This document shows positions 4,317 through 50,295 of a stretch of 64,000 nucleotides of DNA, one piece after another. A program made the position numbers and the translations under genes. The notes beneath the pieces were generated by a model. It was not told the DNA's origin and did not search any database. It saw only the letters and a program-made list of their open reading frames with translations. Source of the stretch: Escherichia coli (GTDB lineage: Bacteria; Pseudomonadota; Gammaproteobacteria; Enterobacterales; Enterobacteriaceae); the NCBI RefSeq assembly GCF_029227855.1, contig NZ_CP074356.1. One strand, given 5' to 3'. Position 1 is the stretch's first letter. Each line of letters starts with the position of its first letter.

Positions 4317-4419
4317 AGTAAATGCCCCAAAAAAAGAGGACGGTTTAAATAAACTCTGCAATGAATAATTAACGTTATTTACCTGTTATGGGAAAAGTGA
4401 AATCAGCTCATAACATACG

Positions 4420-4700
4420 CTGACAGGTGTGGCACATTTGTGCCTGGGAAGAGGGTGAAAATCCCTCGCAGCCCCCGCTGCTGTAATGCTGACAAACCCG
4501 AAAATGCCACTGATCGCGAGATTGGGAAGGTCGGGAGAGGATGACGCTAAGCCAGAAGACCAGCCAGTCAGTCAATACCAACAACTTCGGTGGGAAGTGG
4601 GTTGCCCGGAAGCGTCCGGTAGAGTACCGGCGCGTCTTTATACCCCTACCACCCTGAAAGGATCAGGGTATGGCGGCATCATTTAGTTCTTTCATCGCAG
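4420..4700 (+). promoter_or_regulatory. Cobalamin (B12) riboswitch-like leader
   Basis: Conserved motifs GGTGAAAATCCC...GCAGCCCCCGCTGCTGTAA and a B12-box-like element AAGCCAGAAGACCAGCC, upstream of ORF 4801-5238 and cobUST. Confidence 0.6.
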
Positions 4701-8800: not shown

Positions 8801-8876
8801 TGGCTCCTCTGACTGGACTCGAACCAGTGACATACGGATTAACAGTCCGCCGTTCTACCGACTGAACTACAGAGGA
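8801..8876 (-). tRNA. asnV: tRNA-Asn (GUU)
   Basis: Reverse complement reads TCCTCTGTAGTTCAGTCGGTAGAACGGCGGACTGTTAATCCG...GAGGAGCCA; one of four identical copies in the window. Confidence 0.9.
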
Positions 8877-11209: not shown

Positions 11210-11285
11210 TGGCTCCTCTGACTGGACTCGAACCAGTGACATACGGATTAACAGTCCGCCGTTCTACCGACTGAACTACAGAGGA
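11210..11285 (-). tRNA. asnU: tRNA-Asn (GUU)
   Basis: Identical 76-nt tRNA-Asn sequence on minus strand; preceded by hairpin terminator 11176-11203. Confidence 0.9.
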
Positions 11286-29673: not shown

Positions 29674-37656
<7,983 letters not shown>

Positions 37657-37968
37657 GCTTACCTTCCCTGAACGAGCTAACATAAATGCGCCCTTTCTAG
37701 CACAGCGAAAAAATATAAATCCTGATAGCAATATGATTGAAAATTAATAACTTTTCGTTAGGCAGTTTTGGGTGTGAGTTGCAAGAGGGGAGACTACTGA
37801 ATTACTCAAGTTTTATAATCGAGGGGAAAATGGTGATGGCGTCCATAGCAAAACGCCCTCAACCATAAAGGTCGAGGGCGCTTAAGATGTCAAAAACCCG
37901 CTATCCGTTAAAAAGCAATGCTCAACTAAGGTCAGTGACATTGCGCTAAAAAGCAAATTTTTAGAATT

Positions 37969-38044
37969 TGGCTCCTCTGACTGGACTCGAACCAGTGACA
38001 TACGGATTAACAGTCCGCCGTTCTACCGACTGAACTACAGAGGA
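37969..38044 (-). tRNA. asnT: tRNA-Asn (GUU)
   Basis: Identical 76-nt tRNA-Asn on minus strand. Confidence 0.9.
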
Positions 38045-38144
38045 ATCGTGTGAACGGGGCGCATATTACTTAGCGGTACCTTGTCTGTCAACACTAAATT
38101 TCATAAGTCATTTCAATTGGTTAATTAATCTGCAAAGTTGTTAA

Positions 38145-38942
38145 TTAATGAACATTCGTCGTCGAAAACGAGTCTGTATCATTAGCGTGGTGCAGTCTCT
38201 GCAAAGGATCTTGTTGATAAAATTGGCAGAAACGTTGCCACAATGAAGGGAAACGAGGAGCAAAAAGTTCTGGGGCGCTAAAGAAATATTCAGAAAGTAC
38301 GGCAAAACATTCAGCAGGATCACTGGCAGCATAAGCATCAATGCTCGCCGCATTCTCGCCAACCAATTCGATTTCTTCCTGAATGTTGTTCATTGCAGCA
38401 TGAAGATCGTATTCCCAGCCAGCAACCTCACGCAACGGAATAAAGGGAACTCCGCTGGCGCGATCGCCGTTACGGGTGTCCAGCTTATGAGCGACTTCAT
38501 GAATAATCAGGTTAAAACCAGAAGCATCAAAAGAATCTTGTATATCCAACCAGTTCAAAACGATAGGCCCTTGCTGCCAGCTCTGACCTGACTGAACAAT
38601 ACGTTGGTTATGCACCAGACCGATATCGTCTTCCCATTCATCATCGACCACAAATGGCGCAGGATAAATTAAGACTTCATGAAAACCATCCAGCCATTCC
38701 AGTCCTAACTCCAGAACGGGCAGGCAAAATAGAAGTGCTATCCGGCAGCTTCTTAATGAATCCAGTTCAAAGCCCTGTAAAGGAACAAGCCGCTTTTGCT
38801 GTAAAAAACGTTCGGCAAGAGTGACTAATTTGCTTTGTTCCTGTTCCGTCAGACACGTTAAAAGGGGGATCGATAGTGCTTCCTGCCAGGGAAGGGCAGT
38901 TTGATGTGCTGATTCTTGTACTTTCCAGGGCCACTTAATCAT
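38145..38942 (-). CDS. mtfA: Mlc titration factor A (zinc-dependent peptidase family)
   Basis: Internal ATG gives 265 aa starting [14 protein letters not shown]; HExxH motif ([10 protein letters not shown]). Confidence 0.85.
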
Positions 38943-39035
38943 CGTTTTGCTCGCAAACTCGTCACTTGAACAAAATTGCACGGACAGGGACTGTTAAAAT
39001 GCCAAATTTCCTGGCATCATGGCAACCATCTGAAC

Positions 39036-39125
39036 GGAGAGATGCCGGAGCGGCTGAACGGACCGGTCTCGAAAACCGGAGTAGGGGCAACTCTACCGGG
39101 GGTTCAAATCCCCCTCTCTCCGCCA
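39036..39125 (+). tRNA. serU: tRNA-Ser (CGA); prophage integration site
   Basis: GGAGAGATGCCGGAGCGGCTGAACGGACCGGTCTCGAAAACCGG...CTCTCCGCCA with long variable arm; integrase gene begins about 50 bp downstream. Confidence 0.9.
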
Positions 39126-39177
39126 AAATTCAATCACTTATACATCATTAAGTCAGTGACAAAAATCACACTTGGAA

Positions 39178-40203
39178 TTACTTGGAATATTTTCTTGGAA
39201 TATTTTCAGGTAACGGGACATCAAGTGTCGGTGAAACTTTAACCTTCCTGTCATAGATTAGCACTTGCCCCTCGGTTTTGTGACCAGAGAAAAGTTGCTT
39301 ATCCCGACTGCTTCCTTCATAGTCTGAAATTCCTTTCGCCTTCAGATCATGAAAGGTGAAGTCGGTTAAAATACCTGAAATTTTGCCTGCGCGATTTCTT
39401 GCTTCTACCCACATTTCGTTAAAGCCTTTGTACATATATCGGTTGCCGTACTGATTGCTGATTACATAGGCGGATGTTGGTAACTGTTTTGCTTTTTCGA
39501 TCGCCGCCTGTAATCGTGGACTCCATGCTTTTATCTGTTTTTTTCCTGTTTTCCCTTGCTGGATAAAGATCCCGTCGTTTCCAATCTGCTCCCATTTCAG
39601 CGATAACACATCGGAAACCCTCGCTGCACACAGATAGGCAATTTCCATTGCGATAAAAACAGGAAGAGGTGCAACGCTTAATACTGCCTGGTATTCTTTG
39701 TCGGTTACATATCGTTCGCGGTTTTTGGCCTTGAATTTACTTACACCTGCACATGGGTTAGCCTTCACGTACCCTCGCTCATACCCCCAACTGTAAACGC
39801 GGGACATACTGCTTTTTTCATGGTTGGCTTGCGTTTTACTCTGTTCCCCTCTCTTGTCCATGTATCGACGGATGTGTTCTGGTTTTATGGAATCTGCCGG
39901 CACCTTACCGAATACGGCAAGCAACTTTTTTTGATGTTGCAGATAATCTTTTTGTGTTCTTGGACTGAGGTCACTGTAATAGGCGCTGGCGAGGAATTTT
40001 TCCCACAAGCGACCGAATGTCATTGCACGATCGCGATTATTTACAGTTTCCTCATACTTTTTCCATAAAGCAGCTAAACCATCCTTGATGGCGGTTAGTG
40101 TTACAGATTCTCTGGATGTTGGTTTCCATACATAACTATATTTATTTGGGTATACATTTGGAGGTAATTTTTCGTGTTCAGGATTTTTCCTTCGTCTTCC
40201 CAT
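39178..40203 (-). CDS. int: Phage integrase (tyrosine recombinase)
   Basis: 341-aa ORF starting MGRRRKNPEHEKLPPNVY (lambda-Int-like N-terminus); adjacent to tRNA-Ser. Confidence 0.9.
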   Translation of the reverse strand: MGRRRKNPEHEKLPPNVYPNKYSYVWKPTSRESVTLTAIKDGLAALWKKYEETVNNRDRAMTFGRLWEKFLASAYYSDLSPRTQKDYLQHQKKLLAVFGKVPADSIKPEHIRRYMDKRGEQSKTQANHEKSSMSRVYSWGYERGYVKANPCAGVSKFKAKNRERYVTDKEYQAVLSVAPLPVFIAMEIAYLCAARVSDVLSLKWEQIGNDGIFIQQGKTGKKQIKAWSPRLQAAIEKAKQLPTSAYVISNQYGNRYMYKGFNEMWVEARNRAGKISGILTDFTFHDLKAKGISDYEGSSRDKQLFSGHKTEGQVLIYDRKVKVSPTLDVPLPENIPRKYSK

Positions 40204-40406
40204 CAGATCGCACCAAAATTCGGCTCTACCTCGCGTGGTGGTAAAGTTTTATTGCAGGTAAATAGATCCCGGCTGACAATCGGTTTGCCACTACGATTGG
40301 TATAGAACGGAAGCCCGTTTTCCATTAACCATTTTCGCTGGTGGCTTGCATATTTGCAGCCCGTTAATATTAGCAATTCATCTTCGGTTAAAAATAAGCT
40401 GCTCAT
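40203..40406 (-). CDS. xis: Excisionase-like protein
   Basis: 67-aa ORF immediately upstream of int and overlapping its start. Confidence 0.6.
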   Translation of the reverse strand: MSSLFLTEDELLILTGCKYASHQRKWLMENGLPFYTNRSGKPIVSRDLFTCNKTLPPREVEPNFGAI

Positions 40407-40464
40407 AGCTATATCTCATAACCGCCGCTAACTATATACGGTTAGCGGCAATTAGGGTTGAACA

Positions 40465-42906
40465 TTAAAAATCAGCCTGACTCGGGATCAGTTTTTGCCA
40501 GATAGCTGAAACGTATTTTGCCTGGTAACGAGCGTCATCAAGTGCATTATGGCGCTCACCTTCGAATGGAATAGCCGTTCTGGCATCGAAGTCTATGGCT
40601 TTCCCCAGCTCAACGATTGTGCGTACATCGCGATCGTTGTAGTAACGCCACGGGCAGGGGATCCCCTGCCGTTCGTATGAACGGCGCAAAATCGTGTTGT
40701 CGAAGTTGGCTCCATTTCCCCAGACCTGAACAAAAAATTCACCGGAGTTTTCGTCGATAAATTCCCGCAATTGTAACAGTGCATCATCTAACGGGATTTC
40801 ATCGGTCATAATGGCAGATTGCGCTTCGCGTGATTGCTTAAGCCACCATTTAATGGTGTCCCGATCAATGACTCCGCCAGCAGTTTCCAGATCGATAGTC
40901 TTACTAAATTCCGGTCCCATATCTCCGGTTTGCGGATCGAAAAATATTGCACCTATTGAGATGATCGGGGCATCAGGATTTTTTCCCATGGTTTCAAGGT
41001 CGATCATTAGATGGTCACACGTCCTGCTGGTGGATGTGATTTCGTGATGACCATTCACCGTAATTAAGGGATCTGCCGTCTCGCCAGTTTTACTATCGCT
41101 GGCGTGGTCCTGAGCGCTGCCAGCATTCTCCTTGTGTGGATGTTCAGCGCCTTCCATTTCCTCCGGATCATTTTCCTGAACTTCAACCTGATTCTCTTCA
41201 TCGAATGTTTTCTGGTATGTTGCGTCGCCCATCACCGCGCCACAATCAGGGCAGTTGCCGCCACCGCTCTGACCGCAGGCGGAGCAGACTTTTTCCGGTT
41301 CCTGTTGCGCTACTGGTTCGGATTGTTTCGTTTCTGGCTCGTTTTGTAACGCATTTGGGCTGTTTTGTTCCGCTTTTTGGTCGTTCCGTTCCGATTCATG
41401 CTGGTTCTGGTTCACAGAATCGCGAGTCTGGATCCCCTTGACCCATTTCGGATCATTAGGGTCGCTAATCCCCTCAACAAATTCACCACGCGATACAGCA
41501 AGTAACTTATCGGCGTCAGGCTGGCTGATATTGGCTGCCTGCATAATTTTGTTTACTTCGTCAGCGGTGACTTTTACTTGGTTAGCGGAACTCACCTGCG
41601 ACTGAGCATCCAGCGACTGCGCGTTCTGGCAATGTTCAGTTGTATCCGGTTCCATTGTTTCAGTTGTTGCCTGTTCACCTGCCATTGCGTCAGATGGTTG
41701 TGGTTTTTCTTCTTCTGTTTCACGCTCAGTAACCACCTCGCGGTTAATTTCTTCCAGGATATCTTTTTCCGGCGTATGCCGGGCAGCTGTGAGAGTTTCC
41801 TTGCTGGGGTTCTCGTGATCAGTTTCCGTCAAATAGGCGTTGATATACCCCTGAAGGCGTCCCGGGTAGTGATAAAATTCAGGGTGTGCGCTTCGGATAA
41901 GTGCAAAAATAGCGGCGCGGGAATAGTCCAGAATACCCGGGGTTGCACGAAGTGCTGCGGACCATTCTTTGAACGGACTTTCTTTTTTCAGGACTACTTC
42001 TTTTGCGCGACGATAAACGCTGCCCGGAATTTCATAAATATTAAAATCCATCGGAAGTGTGGCTGCTGCAATCTCCACATCCAGTGTGTCGAGGGTGTGT
42101 ACTAAATTCGGACTGCGATCGGTTTTGTTCCCACCGCCAGCATTAGCACCGGAAGCCGTGCGGGTGATGCGTGAAACACGATTTCCTTTCATCCACTCTT
42201 TTGTCAGCAGACCCCGATCAGTGTAGTCAGCGTCCAGGTATGCTTCGAAAAAAGCAGTTATTAGTCCCAGGTCTGAATTACCAGGATTAGGGAAAACTTT
42301 GTCAGTGTCACGAACCAGTTTGTGGAGGTCGCGAATCTCCAGCGAGTCGAGCAGACTGGTTTTATGCGAAATAGCCAGGGCAGTAACAGCCGGTAGTTCT
42401 TCAGCCCGTGCAATGTGTAATGCCTGGAGTTCGTCGCGTGAAACGTGCGTTACTGGTTTTTCGCTGCCGTGTTGAGCAAGCCAACGAATGGGCAGTTCCT
42501 GACCGGAGACAGGTAGAAGCATGCTCTCCTCAATCTCAGTCATGTCTTCGCCGTTGATGTTGGTATTATCAGTGCTGGCTGATTTGTCCTGAACAGAGGG
42601 GGAAGGGCCGATAAATGTCATTGTGATGCCATCTTTCCCGCCTTTTTCATAGCGGTTGCAGAATTCAGTATCAAACACGCCTTCTGGCGGAAGGTCGTCA
42701 ACAACGGGCAAATTGACGCGGACGGGTTTTTTAAAGTCGTCTTCATCATAATCGTTGTCATCCATTGCGGTAATGCAGCGGGAGATTGCAACAGATAATT
42801 TTTTTGCTGTAGTCCAGTAAAAACCACCTTTAATTCCTAGGCGTTTTCTTACTTTGTCATTTTTTGCTTCGCAATATAGTGCAAATTCTTCTTTATCAGT
42901 GCTCAT
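40465..42906 (-). CDS. Prophage exonuclease (813 aa) with C-terminal DEDD/DnaQ-like 3'-5' exonuclease domain
   Basis: C-terminal motifs MIDLETMG and HNALDDA; CxxC...CxxC zinc-ribbon-like motif (CSACG...CPDCG); long acidic low-complexity middle. Confidence 0.7.
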
Positions 42907-42999
42907 TATTGATAAACCTCATCACAGATTTAAGGGTGAACAAATCTCTGCCATTGCTGACATATAAGAATGAAACTGGATATTTATTACGGTGCTGTT

Positions 43000-43191
43000 T
43001 TAAAATCCTGCCGGGATTTCGTTATTATCCTGGTGAATAACTTTATCGACCGGATAACAGTTGCCTGGAATTTTCTGTTCGGTTGCTGCTGCCATACATT
43101 CCTGCATTGTTCTGTGAACACTGACTGCAATATCAACTGGCTCTCCGGAAACAAGAAAAACCGTCAGAATAAGTGCAAATACTGGATTCAT
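43000..43191 (-). CDS. ydfD: YdfD-like small lysis/membrane protein
   Basis: Internal start MNPVFALILTVFLVSGEPVDIAVSVHRTMQECM... (63 aa); start overlaps the dicB stop. Confidence 0.6.
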   Translation of the reverse strand: MNPVFALILTVFLVSGEPVDIAVSVHRTMQECMAAATEQKIPGNCYPVDKVIHQDNNEIPAGF

Positions 43192-43376
43192 TGTGCACAT
43201 CCTTTTGGCATCAGACGTAAACGGGCCAGCATTGAAACAATGCATACTTTATTTAATAACTCCCGTTCGTGTTTTCTTTTGTTAATGGCCTCTTCAGTAA
43301 ATACAGGATTACTGATAGTGACACCAATTTCAAAACAACCTTCAGACGTATTAACGTTTGGTAATAACGTTTTCAT
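43188..43376 (-). CDS. dicB: Cell-division inhibitor DicB
   Basis: 62-aa ORF MKTLLPNVNTSEGCFEIGVTISNPVFTEEAINKRK... essentially matches the Qin prophage DicB as recalled. Confidence 0.8.
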   Translation of the reverse strand: MKTLLPNVNTSEGCFEIGVTISNPVFTEEAINKRKHERELLNKVCIVSMLARLRLMPKGCAQ

Positions 43377-43544
43377 TATCGCGCCCCAACAATGAGTTTT
43401 GTGATGCGGTGCCTGGTGCCTCCAGGTGACGTTAACCAGTTAACAATTAACGCCGGATACAGAGAATCCACCCATAACACTGTTTTTGGTTTTAACTGTT
43501 CCGCGTGCGCTTAGCCGCATTCACCGCATCACAAAATTCACTTT

Positions 43545-43602
43545 AAAAAGGGCGGCAGAGCAGTCACGGAGTAAAACTGATACCGCCAAACGTCACCAGA
43601 AA
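43545..43602 (-). ncRNA. dicF: DicF small RNA (ftsZ-targeting antisense sRNA)
   Basis: Reverse complement reads TTTCTGGTGACGTTTGGCGGTATCAGTTTTACTCCGTGACTGCTCTGCCGCCCTTTTT, including a terminator hairpin; immediately upstream of dicB. Confidence 0.8.
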
Positions 43603-43943
43603 ATTGATAACAGAGGGCGTTGCAGCGGGGTTGTCACTTAAGCGTATGGTCAACCTGACAACCCGGTGTCCTCAACGGGGGAAGGAATAACCCCGCCATA
43701 CTTACCGCCGCGCCATTTCGCGGATTGCCACAACCGGAAGCGCACGGTCGACGAAAATTTAACGACAGGCTATCTATGAACCAGCTACCTCGCCGTGCGC
43801 TTTCGCGTTATGGTCTGACTTTTCAGGGAAATATCCTTTCAGTAAACTGTCAGTGCCGGATGCTCACCCGTGTCCGGCGCACGCACTCCACCTCACCCGT
43901 GGAGAACTCCTTAATTACTAACCTTAGCTTTGTTGATTAGCTA

Positions 43944-44162
43944 CTAACGCGGGTATGTAATCATTCTGGCAATGCTTAATGCCGCTGCTTTTTCCAGATT
44001 GGTGATATCCTGCTCCAGAGCGGACAGATTTTCAGCCTGCTTAGCCCTGGCTTCATTAGCCCATTTCAGATCCTGCGCTGCATTAATTTTCTGGCGCATC
44101 CACTCATAAAGTTCATCATCGGTATAGTCTGGCGCGATGATGACGGGTTCTCGTTTCTGCAC
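43944..44162 (-). CDS. ydfC: YdfC-like prophage protein
   Basis: 72-aa ORF in the ydfA-ydfB-ydfC-dicF-dicB arrangement. Confidence 0.55.
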   Translation of the reverse strand: MQKREPVIIAPDYTDDELYEWMRQKINAAQDLKWANEARAKQAENLSALEQDITNLEKAAALSIARMITYPR

Positions 44163-44191
44163 GCTGATTCCTCGCGGTGCTGTTTCGCTTA

Positions 44192-44320
44192 TCAGCCGTT
44201 AGATTTTGCCGAACTGGAAAGCGCCTGTTTAAATTCGCTGAAGCTGAGAGCTTCTTCGCCTTCGGCAAGGCCTTCGAAGTATTCTTCGTAAGCCTTTTCC
44301 ATGATTGTGTCGAAATCCAT
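44192..44320 (-). CDS. ydfB: YdfB-like small protein (42 aa)
   Basis: Hand-translated ORF MDFDTIMEKAYEEYFEGLAEGEEALSFSEFKQALSSSAKSNG; below track size cutoff. Confidence 0.55.
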   Translation of the reverse strand: MDFDTIMEKAYEEYFEGLAEGEEALSFSEFKQALSSSAKSNG

Positions 44321-44321
44321 A

Positions 44322-44477
44322 TCACCCACCTGAATTTCTTTCCAGCCAGCGACGCGCTCCAGATTCGGTTTTAAACGTTTTGCTTTTGGTATACGTCATT
44401 GCGGTGAAGGTGCCGTCCTGGTTGGGAAACACGCCGTACACCAGAGATTCGTTGTTGCCAAGATCGATAGTATCCAT
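44322..44477 (-). CDS. ydfA: YdfA-like small protein (DUF1391-like, 51 aa)
   Basis: Internal start MDTIDLGNNESLVYGVFPNQDGTFTAMTYTK within track ORF 44322-44558. Confidence 0.6.
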   Translation of the reverse strand: MDTIDLGNNESLVYGVFPNQDGTFTAMTYTKSKTFKTESGARRWLERNSGG

Positions 44478-44774
44478 GCTGACCTCATTTCCCCTTAACG
44501 CCGGGGTAGCGGAACAAAAACCTGCTGCATAGTTATTAAAGTTGAACCCTGCCGTCATGTTCTTACGCCTCGGGCTGGCTACTTAACCCCTGACCACTGC
44601 CTGGTAACTCGAAGTATTGCCCTGCATTCTGTGGGGCGGGGTGGGTGGTAGGTATATAATGTACTTTTCGTTCATTGTTGTAAAGTACTTTTAGTACATT
44701 TTGTGTGTAAAAAAATGAGATGGGATAAAGTGAAGCACAAACCCGGAGGAAGGCGCTACCGGATTTATGCTGGT

Positions 44775-45194
44775 TTAAGAGGCTTTTTGTTTTTTCTTTC
44801 GTGCTAACTCTTCGTAAATTGCATTGTACTTCTGTTTTTTCTCTTCAAGAGTTTTTAAAAGTTCATCTGTCTCACTGTCAGGGAGCTCGTCCAGAAGGTC
44901 AATGATGATTTTTTGTCTTGGATTTAACTCCTGATAGAAACGTACCTGTCCACTTTCTTCTGTATCCTCTCCCAAAAGATAGGTTGGTGTTGTTCCTATT
45001 AGTGTTGCTAATTCCCTTAATTTCTCCCGGCGAGGAATTGTTTCGCCATTAAACCATTTGCTAACCGCTTTTGGTGTTAATTTCATTCGACGGGCAATTT
45101 CTGCCTGCCTTCCATGTTGTTCATAACCAGCGTTTTCACAGGCTAGCGCAAGCCTACTGGCGAACTCTTTACGCGCTTTATCTTCATGAACCAT
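44775..45194 (-). CDS. Prophage repressor (XRE-family HTH; DicA/RacR/CI-like)
   Basis: 139-aa ORF with HTH (GRQAEIARRMKLTPKAVSKWFNGE); divergent from cro-like gene; same direction as the leftward dicB operon. Confidence 0.7.
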   Translation of the reverse strand: MVHEDKARKEFASRLALACENAGYEQHGRQAEIARRMKLTPKAVSKWFNGETIPRREKLRELATLIGTTPTYLLGEDTEESGQVRFYQELNPRQKIIIDLLDELPDSETDELLKTLEEKKQKYNAIYEELARKKKQKAS

Positions 45195-45273
45195 AAGTTC
45201 AATGATATTCGCTCTTGAATGTACTGTCAGTTCTGTTATAGCATGTACTCAAAGTTCACATTGTGAGGGTGAT
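45195..45273. promoter_or_regulatory. Putative immunity-region operator/promoter interval between repressor and cro-like genes
   Basis: Short divergent intergenic region with repeated ATGTACT(G/C) motifs. Confidence 0.4.
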
Positions 45274-45528
45274 ATGAACCAGAAAACACTTGAAGATGTA
45301 ATCAAAACTGTTCGCGTTGCTGTTGTGGCCGACGTTTGTGGTGTCAGCCAAAGAGCAATCTATAAATGGATGGATAACGGAAAATTGCCTCGCACAGAAT
45401 ATACCGGCGAAACAAATTACGCTGAAAAAATCGCTCTTGCATCAAACGGATTATTTTCTGCCGATGCAATTTTAACTATTGGCAGGAATAAAACTACTAC
45501 GAAAAAGCTGATGGGAGTTGATTCATGA
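45274..45528 (+). CDS. Cro/YdaS-like HTH protein
   Basis: Internal ATG (MNQKTLEDVIKTVRVAVVADVCGVSQRAIYKWMDNGKLP) within track ORF 45202-45528. Confidence 0.6.
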   Translation: MNQKTLEDVIKTVRVAVVADVCGVSQRAIYKWMDNGKLPRTEYTGETNYAEKIALASNGLFSADAILTIGRNKTTTKKLMGVDS

Positions 45529-45950
45529 AAATCAAGCATGAACACATCCGCATGGCGATGAATGCCTGGGCGCATCCGGACGGCGAAAAAGTACCGGCTG
45601 TGAAAATTACCAAAGCGTATTTCGAGCTGGGAATGACGTTCCCGGAACTGTATGACGACAGCCATCCGGAAGCCCTGGCTCGCAATACTCAGAAAATTTT
45701 CCGCTGGGTGGAGAAAGACACCCCTGATGCGGTTAAAAAAATTCAGGCGTTGTTACCAGCTATCGAAAAAGCAATGCCACCTCTGCTGGTGGCCCGAATG
45801 CGCAGTCATAGCTCAGCCTATTTTCGGGAACTAGTGGAGACGCGGGAACGACTGGTGAGAGACGCTGATGATTTTGTCGCAGTGGCGATCGCTGGTTTCA
45901 ACCAGATGAATCGTGGTGGCCCTGCAGGAAATATTGTGGCTGTGCATTGA
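45525..45950 (+). CDS. YdaT-like prophage protein
   Basis: 141-aa ORF translationally coupled to the cro-like gene, in the YdaS/YdaT arrangement of Rac-type prophages. Confidence 0.5.
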   Translation: MKIKHEHIRMAMNAWAHPDGEKVPAVKITKAYFELGMTFPELYDDSHPEALARNTQKIFRWVEKDTPDAVKKIQALLPAIEKAMPPLLVARMRSHSSAYFRELVETRERLVRDADDFVAVAIAGFNQMNRGGPAGNIVAVH

Positions 45951-46015
45951 CTCGCAATATTCATACCGGATCACTTCCGGCAATTTGTGAGTAAAAAGAT
46001 TCGGTATCAAAAGAG

Positions 46016-47104
46016 GTGAGTATGGCTAACGCCTGGCTCAGATTATGGCATGACATGCCAAATGACCCTAAGTGGCGAACAATTGCCAGGGTGTCAGGGC
46101 AGCCAATTGCAACAGTGATGGCAGTGTATATCCACCTCCTGGTGAGCGCGTCACGAAATGTCACGCGAGGTCACATTGATGTCACGACAGAAGATTTGGC
46201 AAGTGCGCTCGACGTGACAGAAGAGGTAATTGATTCAATTTTGCAGACGATGCAGGGGCGGGTACTTGATGGTGATTTAATCACTGGATGGGAAAAACGC
46301 CAGGTGCTTAAAGAGGACAACGGCAATATTTCGCAAACCGCAAAATCTCCTGCAGAGCGCAAGAGGGCGCAGCGAGAGAGGGAAAGAAAGCGGGAACAAA
46401 ATGGCGATTGTCACGGCGCGTCACGAAATGTCACGCACATGTCACGACGAGTCACGACAGATAAAGATACAGATAAAGATACAGATAAAGATACAGATCA
46501 AGAAGATCAAAACACTATGGTCCATGGCGTAAAAAACGCCACGAACCAGGCAGGGGATGTTCAGACCGTCAATCTTGGTCAGCCAGCAGGCACGACACCG
46601 GAAGCCGATTCAGCGTATGCGCTGAAAGCCGATTCGGGCGCTGTGCAGCAGGTGATGACCGCAAGGCCGGAGCAATCACACCAACTGCAGCAGCCCGAAG
46701 CCGATTCCGCCATTCAGCGGGAAGCCGATCGGGTAGTCCCGGAAAACACCGGGCAGTCTGTGGGACGAGTGGATTATCCGGATGTGTTCGAACAGGTCTG
46801 GCGGGAGTACCCGTTGCGTGCCGGAGCAAACCCGAAGAAATCCGCTTTCAGTGCCTGGAAGGCCAGATTACGCGAGGGGGTGCCACCAGAGGCCATGCTG
46901 GATGGCGTGAGGCGTTACGCAAGATACTTGGCGGCTACCGGGAAAACGGGAACGGAATTTGTTCAGCGAGCGACGACGTTTTTTGGACCGGACCGGAATT
47001 TTGAGAACCCCTGGTTGCTCCCGGTAAGCGGCACGAACAACCAGCGTTGTGTGAATCATATTTCTGAACCGGATAACGAAATTCCGCCGGGCTTCAGGGG
47101 GTAA
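46016..47104 (+). CDS. Putative phage replication initiation protein (O-like) containing internal iterons
   Basis: 362-aa ORF with N-terminal HTH-like region, low-complexity middle (DKDTDKDTDKDTD) and two clusters of GTCACG direct repeats inside the coding sequence. Confidence 0.55.
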   Translation: MSMANAWLRLWHDMPNDPKWRTIARVSGQPIATVMAVYIHLLVSASRNVTRGHIDVTTEDLASALDVTEEVIDSILQTMQGRVLDGDLITGWEKRQVLKEDNGNISQTAKSPAERKRAQRERERKREQNGDCHGASRNVTHMSRRVTTDKDTDKDTDKDTDQEDQNTMVHGVKNATNQAGDVQTVNLGQPAGTTPEADSAYALKADSGAVQQVMTARPEQSHQLQQPEADSAIQREADRVVPENTGQSVGRVDYPDVFEQVWREYPLRAGANPKKSAFSAWKARLREGVPPEAMLDGVRRYARYLAATGKTGTEFVQRATTFFGPDRNFENPWLLPVSGTNNQRCVNHISEPDNEIPPGFRG

Positions 47105-47144
47105 GTGTTAATTTCTGGTCATGAGGTAATTTTCAGGAGGGCTT

Positions 47145-47567
47145 GTGGCAAAAGTTTTTACACAAGAAGAGCGGGAAAAAATTAAAGGGCAGGTTGTTGA
47201 ACTCGTACGCCAGAGTGGGCGCGAGACGTTACGACAACTGGAAACTAAAACTGGGGCAACAAGATATCTGATGAGCGTTCTGGCCAGAGAGCTGGTTGCC
47301 AGTGGCGATGTATACAACTCTGGTTACGGGTTATTCCCGTCTGAACAGGCGCGTAAGGACTGGCAAAATGCCCGTAAAAAGCTCTCAAGGGCAAAGCCGA
47401 AGAAACCATCTGCGGTTGATCCGGACCTAATCTGGTCATTACCAGACGGAGAAATACGCCGCTACGACAGGCGCCTGAATATAATCTGTCGCGAGTGCCG
47501 GAAGAGCGAAGCTATGCAGCGTGTACTGGCTTTCTATCAGGGTAATTTTCAGGAGGCGGTACTGTGA
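47145..47567 (+). CDS. Hypothetical prophage protein (140 aa)
   Basis: Track ORF; good spacing after replication gene; no family recognised. Confidence 0.5.
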   Translation: MAKVFTQEEREKIKGQVVELVRQSGRETLRQLETKTGATRYLMSVLARELVASGDVYNSGYGLFPSEQARKDWQNARKKLSRAKPKKPSAVDPDLIWSLPDGEIRRYDRRLNIICRECRKSEAMQRVLAFYQGNFQEAVL

Positions 47568-48074
47568 GTGAAATTAGCTATCAGGCTTCAATTGCCGCTG
47601 GCATTCGCATCAAAGGAGAGGAGCATGGAAATAAAACCAGAGGATTAGTTAAGCAATATCGTTTTATTTCCGATAAAAGAGGATGACCCTCGTAATCAGG
47701 TTAATTTTCTTTATGAGCCATCGGAAAGACCATATTGCCATCACGCTTCTGTCCGGGTTGACGAAAAAGAGCGTCAGGTCCGCTGTAAAATCTGCGGTGC
47801 AGTTGTGGAGCCATTTGACTGGATGCTCTCTGTGGCGAAAAGAGAAACCAGACTGGCAGATGATGTAAGGCTCTTGCGCCAGGAGGAACGGGAAAGGCGA
47901 AAAAATATAGAAAAGCTAATTCAGATTGAGCGTAACGGGAAAGCGCGGATACGCAGGGTGACAAAATCCAAAACTGAATAATTAAATTTAGCACTGTTAA
48001 AAATTTAATCCTTAACCGGAGGGATTTCTGCACCCTCAGAACAGCAGGAGGCCACCCGAAAGGGCGGTAGTGAA

Positions 48075-48257
48075 ATGCGAAAGTTCAAAATAATTATTGA
48101 AACGGGAATGGCTGGTGGAGATTTCGAGGATGAATTCGAAGTGGATGCTGATGCGACGCCTGATGAAATACATGACGAAGCAAAAGATATTTTCTTTAAC
48201 TACTGCAATTACTCATATCACGAAATAAAAGACGAAGAGGAAGAGCAAAATGGCTGA
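48075..48257 (+). CDS. Small acidic hypothetical prophage protein (60 aa)
   Basis: Track ORF, highly acidic; followed by two further coupled small ORFs (about 48250-48425 and 48423-48533). Confidence 0.4.
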   Translation: MRKFKIIIETGMAGGDFEDEFEVDADATPDEIHDEAKDIFFNYCNYSYHEIKDEEEEQNG

Positions 48258-49401
48258 TTTTGGTTCAACTAAATACAACGTCAGTTTTGAAAAATGGCAT
48301 GAACTGTTAATGGACTATGCAGAGTTACGTGGTGGCAGTGCTGCTGATGCTGAAGCATGGCGTGATGATTATGAAGCAGGAAAAAATCCGGTCGAAGCAT
48401 ATTGTGATGAGTGGGGCGATGAATGAGCGAGATTAATTATCAGGAAGGGTATGAAACGGCGGGGCAAGCAAAACCAGTGGCATGGCGATATCGCTACGTG
48501 AAAAAAGGCGTTACGGACTTTCAGGAGAAGTAGTGGTCTGTTGACTGGAAATATGTACCGAAAAAAGAGGATTGTAACGACAGGCCGAACTATCAAATTC
48601 AGGCCTTATTCACTGCCTCACCAGCCCTGGTTACATCAGAAGAACTGGTTAAAGCTGTGCACTTTTATGAACAACTAAAACGCGAAAATCCACCAACATC
48701 CGGCAACTAGATTAATGGGTTAACTATGTCGGTTAAACGACCAGCCAACTGAAAAAGCGGAAACCTGATTATAGGTTGCCAGATAAGGCAATAAGCTACC
48801 TGGCGCGGAACGGACTGATAAGTATGGGGAATGTTTTACGATGAACCTTTAGACTAAAGAGTTTGTAACGCTATGTAAGTGATTTTTTCTAGTTTAGATA
48901 TTTATATGTCCGGCCAAATTGAGGTGTGTTTAAATGTAATTGCACATTGATTGTAGGAGGAATAATGAAAAACGCATTGCAGTTTTTGTTTGTTGCGTTC
49001 TGGTTGTTCGTATCATGTATGCCCATCATCTTCACAGCAAGGTATATGGAAAAAGTTGATGTTTTGATATTAATATTTGGATATATAAATGCCCTTTTTT
49101 TAGGGGTGTTCATGGCGGTCATGTGCATTGAATACTGGCGGTAAATACAGCGAACTCCATTGGTTTAGTTGGATATTTATTGTGCTGGACAAAAACGGTT
49201 TGCGGGGAAATCTTAGTTAAGTAGAATGACTGCGGGTGCTTGAGGCTATCTGCCTCGGGCATGAACACCAACGGCAGATAGAGAAAAGCCCCAGGTAACA
49301 TTACGCGTCCTGCAAGACGTTTAACATTAATCTGAGGCCATATCTATGCGACACATAGAGATTAGCCTCTTACGGACCGAAAGGTCAAGGAGAAGCAGGC
49401 T

Positions 49402-49557
49402 ATGAAGCAGCAAAAGGCGATGTTAATCGCCCTGATCGTCATCTGTTTAACCGTCATAGTGACGGCACTGGTAACGAGGAAAGACCTCTGCGAGGTACGA
49501 ATCCGAACCGGCCAGACGGAGGTCGCTGTCTTCACAGTTTACGAACCTGAGGAGTAA
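49402..49557 (+). CDS. hokD: Hok/Gef-family type I toxin (51 aa)
   Basis: Hand-translated MKQQKAMLIALIVICLTVIVTALVTRKDLCEVRIRTGQTEVAVFTVYEPEE; short upstream ORF ends at the hok ATG; terminator hairpin at about 49626-49650. Confidence 0.85.
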   Translation: MKQQKAMLIALIVICLTVIVTALVTRKDLCEVRIRTGQTEVAVFTVYEPEE

Positions 49558-50015
49558 GAGACCCGGCGAGGGAGAAATCCCTCGCCACCTCTGATGTGTC
49601 AGGCATCCTCAATGCACCCGCACTTAACCCGCTTCGGCGGGTTTATTTTATCTGTGAATATTTTTATAAAAATAATGCCCACACACAGCATAAAACAAAA
49701 AGTATCACAGATAAAAAAGGAGCGTAATGTGCAGATTTGTTGTTTTCCATATTTACTCACTTTAACATAATCAATATTGATATGGTTGTTGTTTCGGTGG
49801 TTTCAAACGAGATGTTATGATGATCTGGTAAAATTGCATAACATTAAAATTTAATTTATCTAATCGCTTTTAATAATAAGCGTTGTGTTTATCCCAACAA
49901 TCTGTTGTTTGACTTTTATTCCATTAATGTAGGGGCTTTACACTGGAACCAGTTTATTTATACTTTATACGCCAGCCTGAACAACTGGCACCTGCTGCGC
50001 CAGCAGAGACAACCG

Positions 50016-50294
50016 ATGGCGCACGATACCAAATTACACAATTCTGATGATTCTGCCGTCTTTGCCAGCAGGTGCGGACGGCGTTTTCATGCATTCAAAT
50101 CGGACTGGTTCCAGCATCCACCATGCACTGAAGAGCAGGCTGAATGGATAATTCAGTGTTACCGCAGGCGCGGATACGAGGTTAAAAAAGCCCTTAGCCT
50201 CGACTACCGTCACTGGATAATCTCAGTCAGATTGCCTTACTCCGAACGCCCACCGCGTCCATCCCGCACATTCCAGCAACGCATCTGGAGGTAA
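50016..50294 (+). CDS. Hypothetical prophage protein (92 aa)
   Basis: Internal ATG within track ORF 49905-50294 (which starts at TTG); ends 1 nt before the DUF968 gene. Confidence 0.4.
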   Translation: MAHDTKLHNSDDSAVFASRCGRRFHAFKSDWFQHPPCTEEQAEWIIQCYRRRGYEVKKALSLDYRHWIISVRLPYSERPPRPSRTFQQRIWR

Positions 50295-50295
50295 C

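Follow-up and report, generated by a model that had tools for sequence, protein, structure and literature searches.

Genes and features of the locus

The window, a stretch of 64,000 nucleotides of Escherichia coli DNA, carries a hok toxin gene that is preceded by a short mok leader frame and followed by an intrinsic terminator, with a predicted Sok antisense RNA on the opposite strand. Taken together, these features very probably form a complete hok/mok/sok type I toxin-antitoxin module of the hokD/hokW subgroup, a small cassette in a Qin-like lambdoid prophage. The functional locus extends over about 49200-49650. The initial annotation, which had set it at 49300-49660, located the locus itself correctly, with a left edge that leaves out the hok promoter together with 66 nt at the 5′ end of the hok mRNA and thereby cuts off three parts of this mRNA, namely tac, the metastable hairpin and ucb. 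The coding features and their translation signals are the following:

49334-49338, plus strand: Shine-Dalgarno sequence of mok, GAGGC, 7 nt 5′ of the mok ATG
49346-49405, plus strand: mok, a leader frame of 19 codons, MRHIEISLLRTERSRRSRL, identified by translation and by a start homologous to other mok starts
49388-49392, plus strand: Shine-Dalgarno sequence of hok, AGGAG, 9 nt 5′ of the hok ATG and invariant in all relatives
49402-49557, plus strand: hok toxin gene, 51 aa, HokD-type by its Pfam HOK_GEF match and its identity to HokD
49540-49545, plus strand: Tyr47 codon within TACGAA, a candidate site of TadA A-to-I recoding (Tyr to Cys)

The hok product corresponds to the toxins of the Hok/Gef family, which are about 50 residues long, carry a transmembrane helix at the N-terminus and bear the Hok/Gef signature. 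The initial annotation had likewise assigned the frame of 51 codons to this family, and Pfam HOK_GEF (PF01848) covers residues 6-47 (E = 2.6e-22, 78.6 bits against a cut-off of 22). The Hok family models of NCBIfam reached a sub-threshold level only (45 bits against a cut-off of 73) and gave no help with naming. A chance reading frame, also considered, is ruled out by the Pfam score and by the Rfam score of the leader described below. The toxin is identical to K-12 HokD in 50 of 51 residues, to HokW in 47 of 51 and to the Hok protein of plasmid R1 in 40%; identical DNA is annotated as hokD (WP_000813256.1).

The hexamer TACGAA at Tyr47 is invariant across 84 related loci. This is consistent with the TadA A-to-I recoding of hokD mRNA, the editing having been reported at this cysteine position (bioRxiv 10.1101/2025.08.07.668861). 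A tRNA-like hairpin around the TACG of Tyr47 was considered as support for editing and was rejected, as it folds no better than shuffled sequences do (z = 0.02).

The short upstream frame that had been noted as ending at the toxin ATG is mok, whose TGA at 49403-49405 overlaps the hok ATG in the form ATGA. By alignment, R1, hokC and Sp5 have mok starts homologous to its own. The frame therefore reaches the hok start, an arrangement from which translational coupling of hok to mok would be predicted.

The hok mRNA and its predicted folds

The hok mRNA is defined by the following elements, most of which were located through folding of the RNA and through the Rfam consensus:

49200-49205, plus strand: −35 element of the hok promoter, TTGCGG, assigned by its position 16 nt 5′ of the −10 element
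49222-49227, plus strand: −10 element of the hok promoter, TAGAAT, ending 7 nt before the mRNA 5′ end
49234-49650, plus strand: full-length hok mRNA of about 417 nt, with the 5′ end taken from Rfam and the 3′ end from the intrinsic terminator
49234-49245, plus strand: tac, the translational activator element, GGGUGCUUGAGG, located by folding and invariant in 84 related loci
49252-49262, plus strand: 3′ arm of the metastable 5′ hairpin, with 49236-49246 as its partner in the nascent transcript
49286-49296, plus strand: ucb, the anti-Shine-Dalgarno element of mok, AAGCCCCAGGU, located by folding and the Rfam consensus
49365-49369, plus strand: dcb, GCCUC, predicted to pair with the mok Shine-Dalgarno sequence in the truncated-mRNA conformation (constrained fold and Rfam consensus helix)
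49607-49619, plus strand: fbi, the fold-back inhibitory element, CCUCAAUGCACCC, pairing with tac in the minimum-energy fold
49626-49650, plus strand: intrinsic terminator of the hok mRNA, a stem of 7 bp (49626-49643) with a loop of 4 nt followed by TATTTTAT

Both promoter elements show signs of conservation: among 49 unique upstream variants of related loci the TTG of the −35 element is kept throughout and the −10 element is conserved in nearly all, and a −10-like hexamer stands at equal distance in R1 hok, K-12 hokB and K-12 hokC. The terminator hairpin of the initial annotation, with its stem at 49626-49643 and a T run behind it, was recovered as the sole terminator-like site within 49100-49800.

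The 5′ end of the mRNA was taken as position 1 of the match to Rfam family RF01794, which aligns with the start of the R1 mRNA, for which the numbering G4, C5 and T6 is given in PMC9841398. The Rfam scan, by which the locus had been proposed for checking, matched RF01794 from end to end to 49234-49404 (100.8 bits, E = 1.2e-21, gathering score 59), that is, to a structured hok leader which ends at the hok AUG. Although RF01794 bears the name “sok”, in K-12 it matches the toxin strand of hokC and hokB, opposite the annotated sokC and sokB. Because the model thus lies on the hok sense strand, its match in the window is read as the hok mRNA leader with the target of Sok and not as a map of Sok itself.

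For the first 35-45 nt of the nascent transcript the predicted structure is a hairpin of 49236-49246 with 49252-49262 (−18.8 to −19.0 kcal/mol). In the minimum-energy fold of 49234-49652, tac (49234-49245) pairs instead with fbi (49607-49619) in a duplex of 12 bp with one bulge (−21.1 kcal/mol), and the region of the mok Shine-Dalgarno sequence (49330-49338) is paired to ucb (49288-49296). In the fold of the leader alone, tac (49234-49241) is paired to ucb (49286-49292). Enforcing this tac/ucb pairing on the trimmed mRNA cost 2 kcal/mol and left the mok Shine-Dalgarno sequence (49334-49338) to pair with dcb (49365-49369); left unconstrained, the 3′-trimmed mRNA did not adopt tac/ucb spontaneously, the minimum being lower by these 2 kcal/mol. 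The predicted folds enclose the hok AUG in a long-range helix.

The closure of tac on fbi, the alternative pairing of tac with ucb and the metastable 5′ hairpin are thus all found in the predicted folds and are accompanied by covariation. In hokB, a change of tac U7 to C goes together with changes of A to G in both ucb and fbi, and a change of tac G12 to A with a change of C to U in fbi. The counterpart pairing in R1 is GGCGCUU/AAGCGCC, and fbi lies 47-54 nt past the stop codon in all six loci compared except K-12 hokC. These structures correspond to the model of R1, in which tac/fbi closure, sequestration of the mok Shine-Dalgarno sequence by ucb and a metastable hairpin in the nascent 5′ end are followed, after 3′ trimming, by a switch to the tac/ucb and Shine-Dalgarno/dcb pairings (PMC9841398). 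All regulatory RNA elements of the hok/sok system of plasmid R1 are recovered at the window locus, as judged from its sequence and modelled folds.

The predicted Sok antisense RNA and its promoter

Three features are assigned to the minus strand:

49278-49352, minus strand: predicted Sok antisense RNA of 75 nt, with its 5′ end at 49352 and its 3′ end at 49278
49359-49364, minus strand: −10 element of the sok promoter, TAATCT, aligning with TAACCT of sokW and TATCCT of R1
49383-49388, minus strand: −35 element of the sok promoter, TTGACC, with a spacer of 18 nt to the −10 element

The initial annotation had expected a sok-like RNA. It can now be placed by homology, reading from 49352 to 49278, since its ends were carried over by alignment from the annotated sokC of K-12. 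This placement makes use of the fact that the K-12 sokB and sokC RNAs start 8-10 nt inside mok. The predicted RNA spans the mok Shine-Dalgarno sequence, the first two mok codons and one base of the third, and would fold into a long hairpin followed by GGGGCUUUUCU (−26.1 kcal/mol, z = −3.9). There are 33 Sok alleles among the 84 unique related loci; the hairpin is kept in all of them, and each of the 33 folds better as the antisense than as the sense strand, by 6-14 kcal/mol. The hairpin of the window is somewhat weaker than that of most alleles (−26.1 against about −32 kcal/mol).

The promoter of this RNA, Psok, aligns with the R1, hokB, hokC and Sp5 sequences, and its −10 element also aligns with the promoters that the K-12 annotation of sokB and sokC implies. 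None of the six aligned family members and none of the 84 related loci deviates in the TTG of the Psok −35 element. In phage Sp5, a change of the sokW −10 element from TAACCT to GAGCCG (primers YO-421/422, the “pro-less” construct) led to a loss of antitoxin activity (PMC8621323), and the −10 element of the window sits exactly at this experimentally mutated site. The dcb element overlaps Psok, as that of R1 likewise does (PMC9841398).

Promoter prediction on the antisense strand at 49330-49410, which had been proposed as a check, gave a divided answer. A generic sigma-70 scan of 49100-49800 reported no antisense promoter, yet the conserved Psok lies by alignment inside this interval. The scan missed it because the site agrees with the consensus at 8 of 12 positions and the threshold of the tool is 9. 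The miss was therefore rejected as proof of absence, as a conserved site just under the threshold coincides with a validated homologue. At the level of sequence, the locus thus has a cis-encoded antisense Sok with a promoter of its own, directed against the mok initiation region. The findings that would have spoken against the initial annotation, a missing antisense promoter or RNA structure and a disrupted toxin frame, were not made: promoter and structure are both predicted here, and the toxin frame is intact.

The prophage context

The element that carries the cassette is a Qin-like lambdoid prophage at tRNA-Ser, in agreement with the prophage setting given initially. It adjoins the tRNA-Ser(cga) gene at 39036-39125, beside mtfA. 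An annotated twin locus (L001) is 99.7% identical to the window over 37189-50985 and 99.5% over 50980-59553, and the gene order given here is the annotation of L001 transferred through that match. From the left, it runs from tRNA-Ser through an integrase and an exonuclease, dicB and ydfABC, and a repressor pair with the replication genes to hokD; to the right of hokD follow DUF968, rusA and Q, two prophage tRNAs, the lysis genes and the terminase. The cassette therefore has the replication genes on one side and DUF968-rusA-Q on the other, and hok is co-oriented with the genes from replication to Q.

Several further features were observed in the prophage. The antisense sRNA DicF lies at 43550-43601 on the minus strand (Rfam, 76.7 bits), beside the homologues of dicB and ydfABC, and this neighbourhood confirms the Qin-type character of the element. 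The two prophage tRNAs are Ile and Arg in the annotation of L001 and Met(cat) and Arg(tct) according to ARAGORN on the window, where they are found at 52694 and 52875, respectively; a match to the sRNA STnc100 (53648-53837, plus strand, 132 bits) lies downstream of them and of the Q antiterminator gene. Just 5′ of the hok promoter there is a strongly hydrophobic reading frame of 59 aa, beginning MKNALQFLFVAFWLF, at 48966-49144 on the plus strand; it has no match in Pfam and is unannotated in the twin genome record. In strain WP8-S18-ESBL-07 (L001, 13888-15854), the DUF968 gene of the otherwise 99.5-99.7% identical prophage is split by the IS21-family element ISEc62; in the window, this gene is uninterrupted at the corresponding place (about 50985).

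Elsewhere in the window, four tRNA-Asn genes were found at 8801-8876, 11210-11285, 13034-13109 and 37969-38044. Among the tRNA-Asn genes lie matches to EFASI RNA (16543-16670, minus strand, 100.8 bits) and to the C4 antisense RNA (18104-18192, minus strand, 62.2 bits), a sign that there may be a further mobile element apart from the prophage. A cobalamin riboswitch is located at 4408-4582 on the plus strand (109 bits).

Variation among related loci and alternative readings

Related loci are found in Stx phages, P1-like phage-plasmids (~90%) and other lambdoid phages. Across 84 unique aligned loci nearly all columns are conserved and average about 0.1 bit, except in a hypervariable patch of 18 nt at 49340-49357. 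This patch reaches 0.6-0.95 bit and takes in the opening codons of mok, the Sok 5′ tail and the bases that separate the Psok −10 element from the Sok start. About eight discrete alleles of it exist, that of the window being present in 16 of 120 loci. Together with an indel of 1 nt near 49385, the patch alleles set the state of the mok frame, for which three forms exist among the close relatives: a frame of 70 aa fused in frame with hok (“MokW”), which is the majority form and includes Sp5; the frame of 19 codons stopping on the hok ATG, as in the window; and a +1 frame of 68 codons in P1-like loci. The short form is a minority, with about 13% of related phage loci.

Discrete alleles at such a site could be taken for selected specificity cassettes, which would prevent the Sok RNAs of co-resident prophages from cross-regulating each other's hok mRNAs. 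This seems unlikely. In 10 genomes with two or three locus-bearing phage contigs, a small sample that possibly includes duplicated prophages, 7 of the 14 within-genome pairs share an allele compared with 10% of random pairs, and an avoidance of identical alleles is therefore not supported.

The conservation of the remaining columns bears on the question of whether the locus does anything at all. It might be structurally intact and functionally silent, a decaying passenger which neither kills nor serves the life cycle of the prophage. Such silence would fit with the lack of post-segregational killing by the chromosomal hokA, hokB and hokC (bioRxiv 10.1101/2025.08.07.668861), with two weakening substitutions in the Sok hairpin of the window, and with the K-12 copy of the same gene, from which the entire 5′ control region is absent. 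Against this, all known control elements are present and in register, the reading frame is intact, and the close homologue hokW-sokW is active (PMC8621323). Coding and regulatory columns alike are nearly invariant in the 84 unique phage loci, which indicates purifying selection. A silent locus seems quite improbable.

That hok owes its expression solely to the early-right operon, as a passenger comparable to K-12 hokD in the relBE operon, and has no dedicated control by Sok is scarcely credible. Although hok has the orientation of the replication-to-Q genes and K-12 hokD has no Sok of its own, the window copy still has a promoter of its own besides tac, ucb, mok and the Psok/Sok region, and RF01794 matches in the window and not at the K-12 hokD locus.

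Proposed mechanism and role

For a complete and controlled hok/mok/sok module, the preferred reading of the locus, the following course of events can be proposed. Sequence elements and folds suggest that the weak promoter TTGCGG-16-TAGAAT would give the hok mRNA of about 417 nt, that tac would first close on itself in the metastable hairpin of the nascent transcript, and that in the finished transcript tac would pair with fbi and the mok Shine-Dalgarno sequence would be held by ucb, leaving the mRNA inert. By analogy with R1 and hokW-sokW, this closed mRNA would be stable and would accumulate, and slow trimming of the 3′ end would then remove fbi, so that tac could move to ucb, the mok Shine-Dalgarno sequence would be freed and mok translated. 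Ribosomes stopping at the UGA that overlaps the hok AUG would open the helix in which this AUG is buried, and hok would thereby be coupled to mok. Hok would enter the inner membrane and depolarise or lyse the cell. The unstable Sok of 75 nt would counteract this by pairing with the mok initiation region, blocking its translation and triggering cleavage of the duplex, so that Hok would be made only once the synthesis of Sok stops. The 3′ processing of hok mRNA, the cleavage of the duplex by RNase III and the toxicity of Hok have been shown for homologues only (PMC8621323, PMC9841398).

The most likely role of the module, by analogy with its closest characterised relative, is to aid host lysis and phage release after induction of the prophage. 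The hokW-sokW system assists lysis and brings about a doubling of the phage released upon mitomycin C treatment, and the sokW RNA vanishes on induction (PMC8621323). Since hok points the same way as the early-right operon, one may speculate that transcription of this operon, once induced, could disturb the sok promoter, which is convergent with it. Alternatively, the module may serve to retain the prophage or to keep other phages out. In earlier tests, chromosomal hokA, hokB and hokC caused no post-segregational killing (summarised in bioRxiv 10.1101/2025.08.07.668861).

Occurrence and annotation in public genomes

The hokD-type locus of the window is already known. The DNA at 49200-49680 is 100% identical to hokD-annotated DNA in at least 10 complete E. 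coli genomes, and at least 80% of this segment is found in 3904 of 5426 genomes. As identical copies in public genomes already carry the hokD annotation, the locus is an ordinary, textbook module of an already characterised subgroup. The RefSeq records with identical DNA list the hokD coding sequence only, leaving Sok, mok and the control elements of the mRNA unannotated. New here are the coordinates of the Sok RNA, the mok frame and the mRNA control elements, the value of which lies mostly in annotation; they may be useful to students of prophage-borne hok/sok modules, whose role there is only partly settled.

Comparison with known systems

The archetype of the family is hok/sok (parB) of plasmid R1, which has the same order of tac, metastable hairpin, ucb, mok Shine-Dalgarno sequence, mok, dcb/Psok, hok, fbi and terminator, and the same offset of fbi past the stop codon as the window. 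It differs in the Hok protein itself, at only 40% identity, in a shorter Sok, and in a long mok that overlaps hok in another frame; R1 hok/sok is moreover a plasmid stabilisation cassette and not a prophage gene. The K-12 loci hokB/sokB and hokC/sokC have the same Rfam leader match as the window. Their toxins belong to different subgroups, their Sok hairpins are shorter, and they are located in the core chromosome rather than in a prophage.

Much closer is hokW-sokW of the Stx2 prophage Sp5 (VT2-Sakai; PMC8621323), with 90.7% DNA identity over the locus, identical 5′ 50 nt, the same position of Psok and a toxin matching at 47 of 51 positions. Both Sok hairpins share an extension of 16 nt relative to the Rfam consensus. 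The two loci differ in the mok frame, which in Sp5 starts in frame with hok to give the 70-aa MokW and in the window stops on the hok ATG after 19 codons, and in the sequence of the Sok 5′ tail. No terminator can be recognised at the homologous place in Sp5, whose copy lies near the right prophage end, whereas the window copy lies in a nin-like region.

The toxin gene itself is closest to hokD (relF) of the cryptic prophage Qin of K-12, whose product differs at a single one of the 51 residues. Beginning about 9 nt 5′ of the hok Shine-Dalgarno sequence and continuing across fbi and the terminator, the DNA is the same; identity amounts to 98.4% for the 3′ half of the locus and to 85% for the DUF968 gene that follows. 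Each copy is followed by a DUF968 (ydfU)-Q block, and each resides in a Qin-type prophage that has dicB and DicF. The K-12 locus lacks the promoter, tac, ucb, mok and sok, the end of relE standing upstream in their place, and a search of it with RF01794 gave no match, unlike in the window. These 5′ control elements are missing because the relBE operon, of which K-12 hokD is the third gene, abuts the hok Shine-Dalgarno sequence. In the window there is no relBE; the initial annotation had seen no such pair next to the toxin, and the relBE DNA of K-12 has no match anywhere in the window. If hokD is understood as a K-12-type, near-identical toxin at the syntenic Qin-type position, the window locus is hokD; if it is understood as a truncated, relBE-fused locus without mok and sok, it is not. 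Having a full leader and no relBE DNA, the window copy is regarded as the untruncated, intact hokD, and it shows the hokD (relF) locus of K-12 as it was before relBE displaced its control region.
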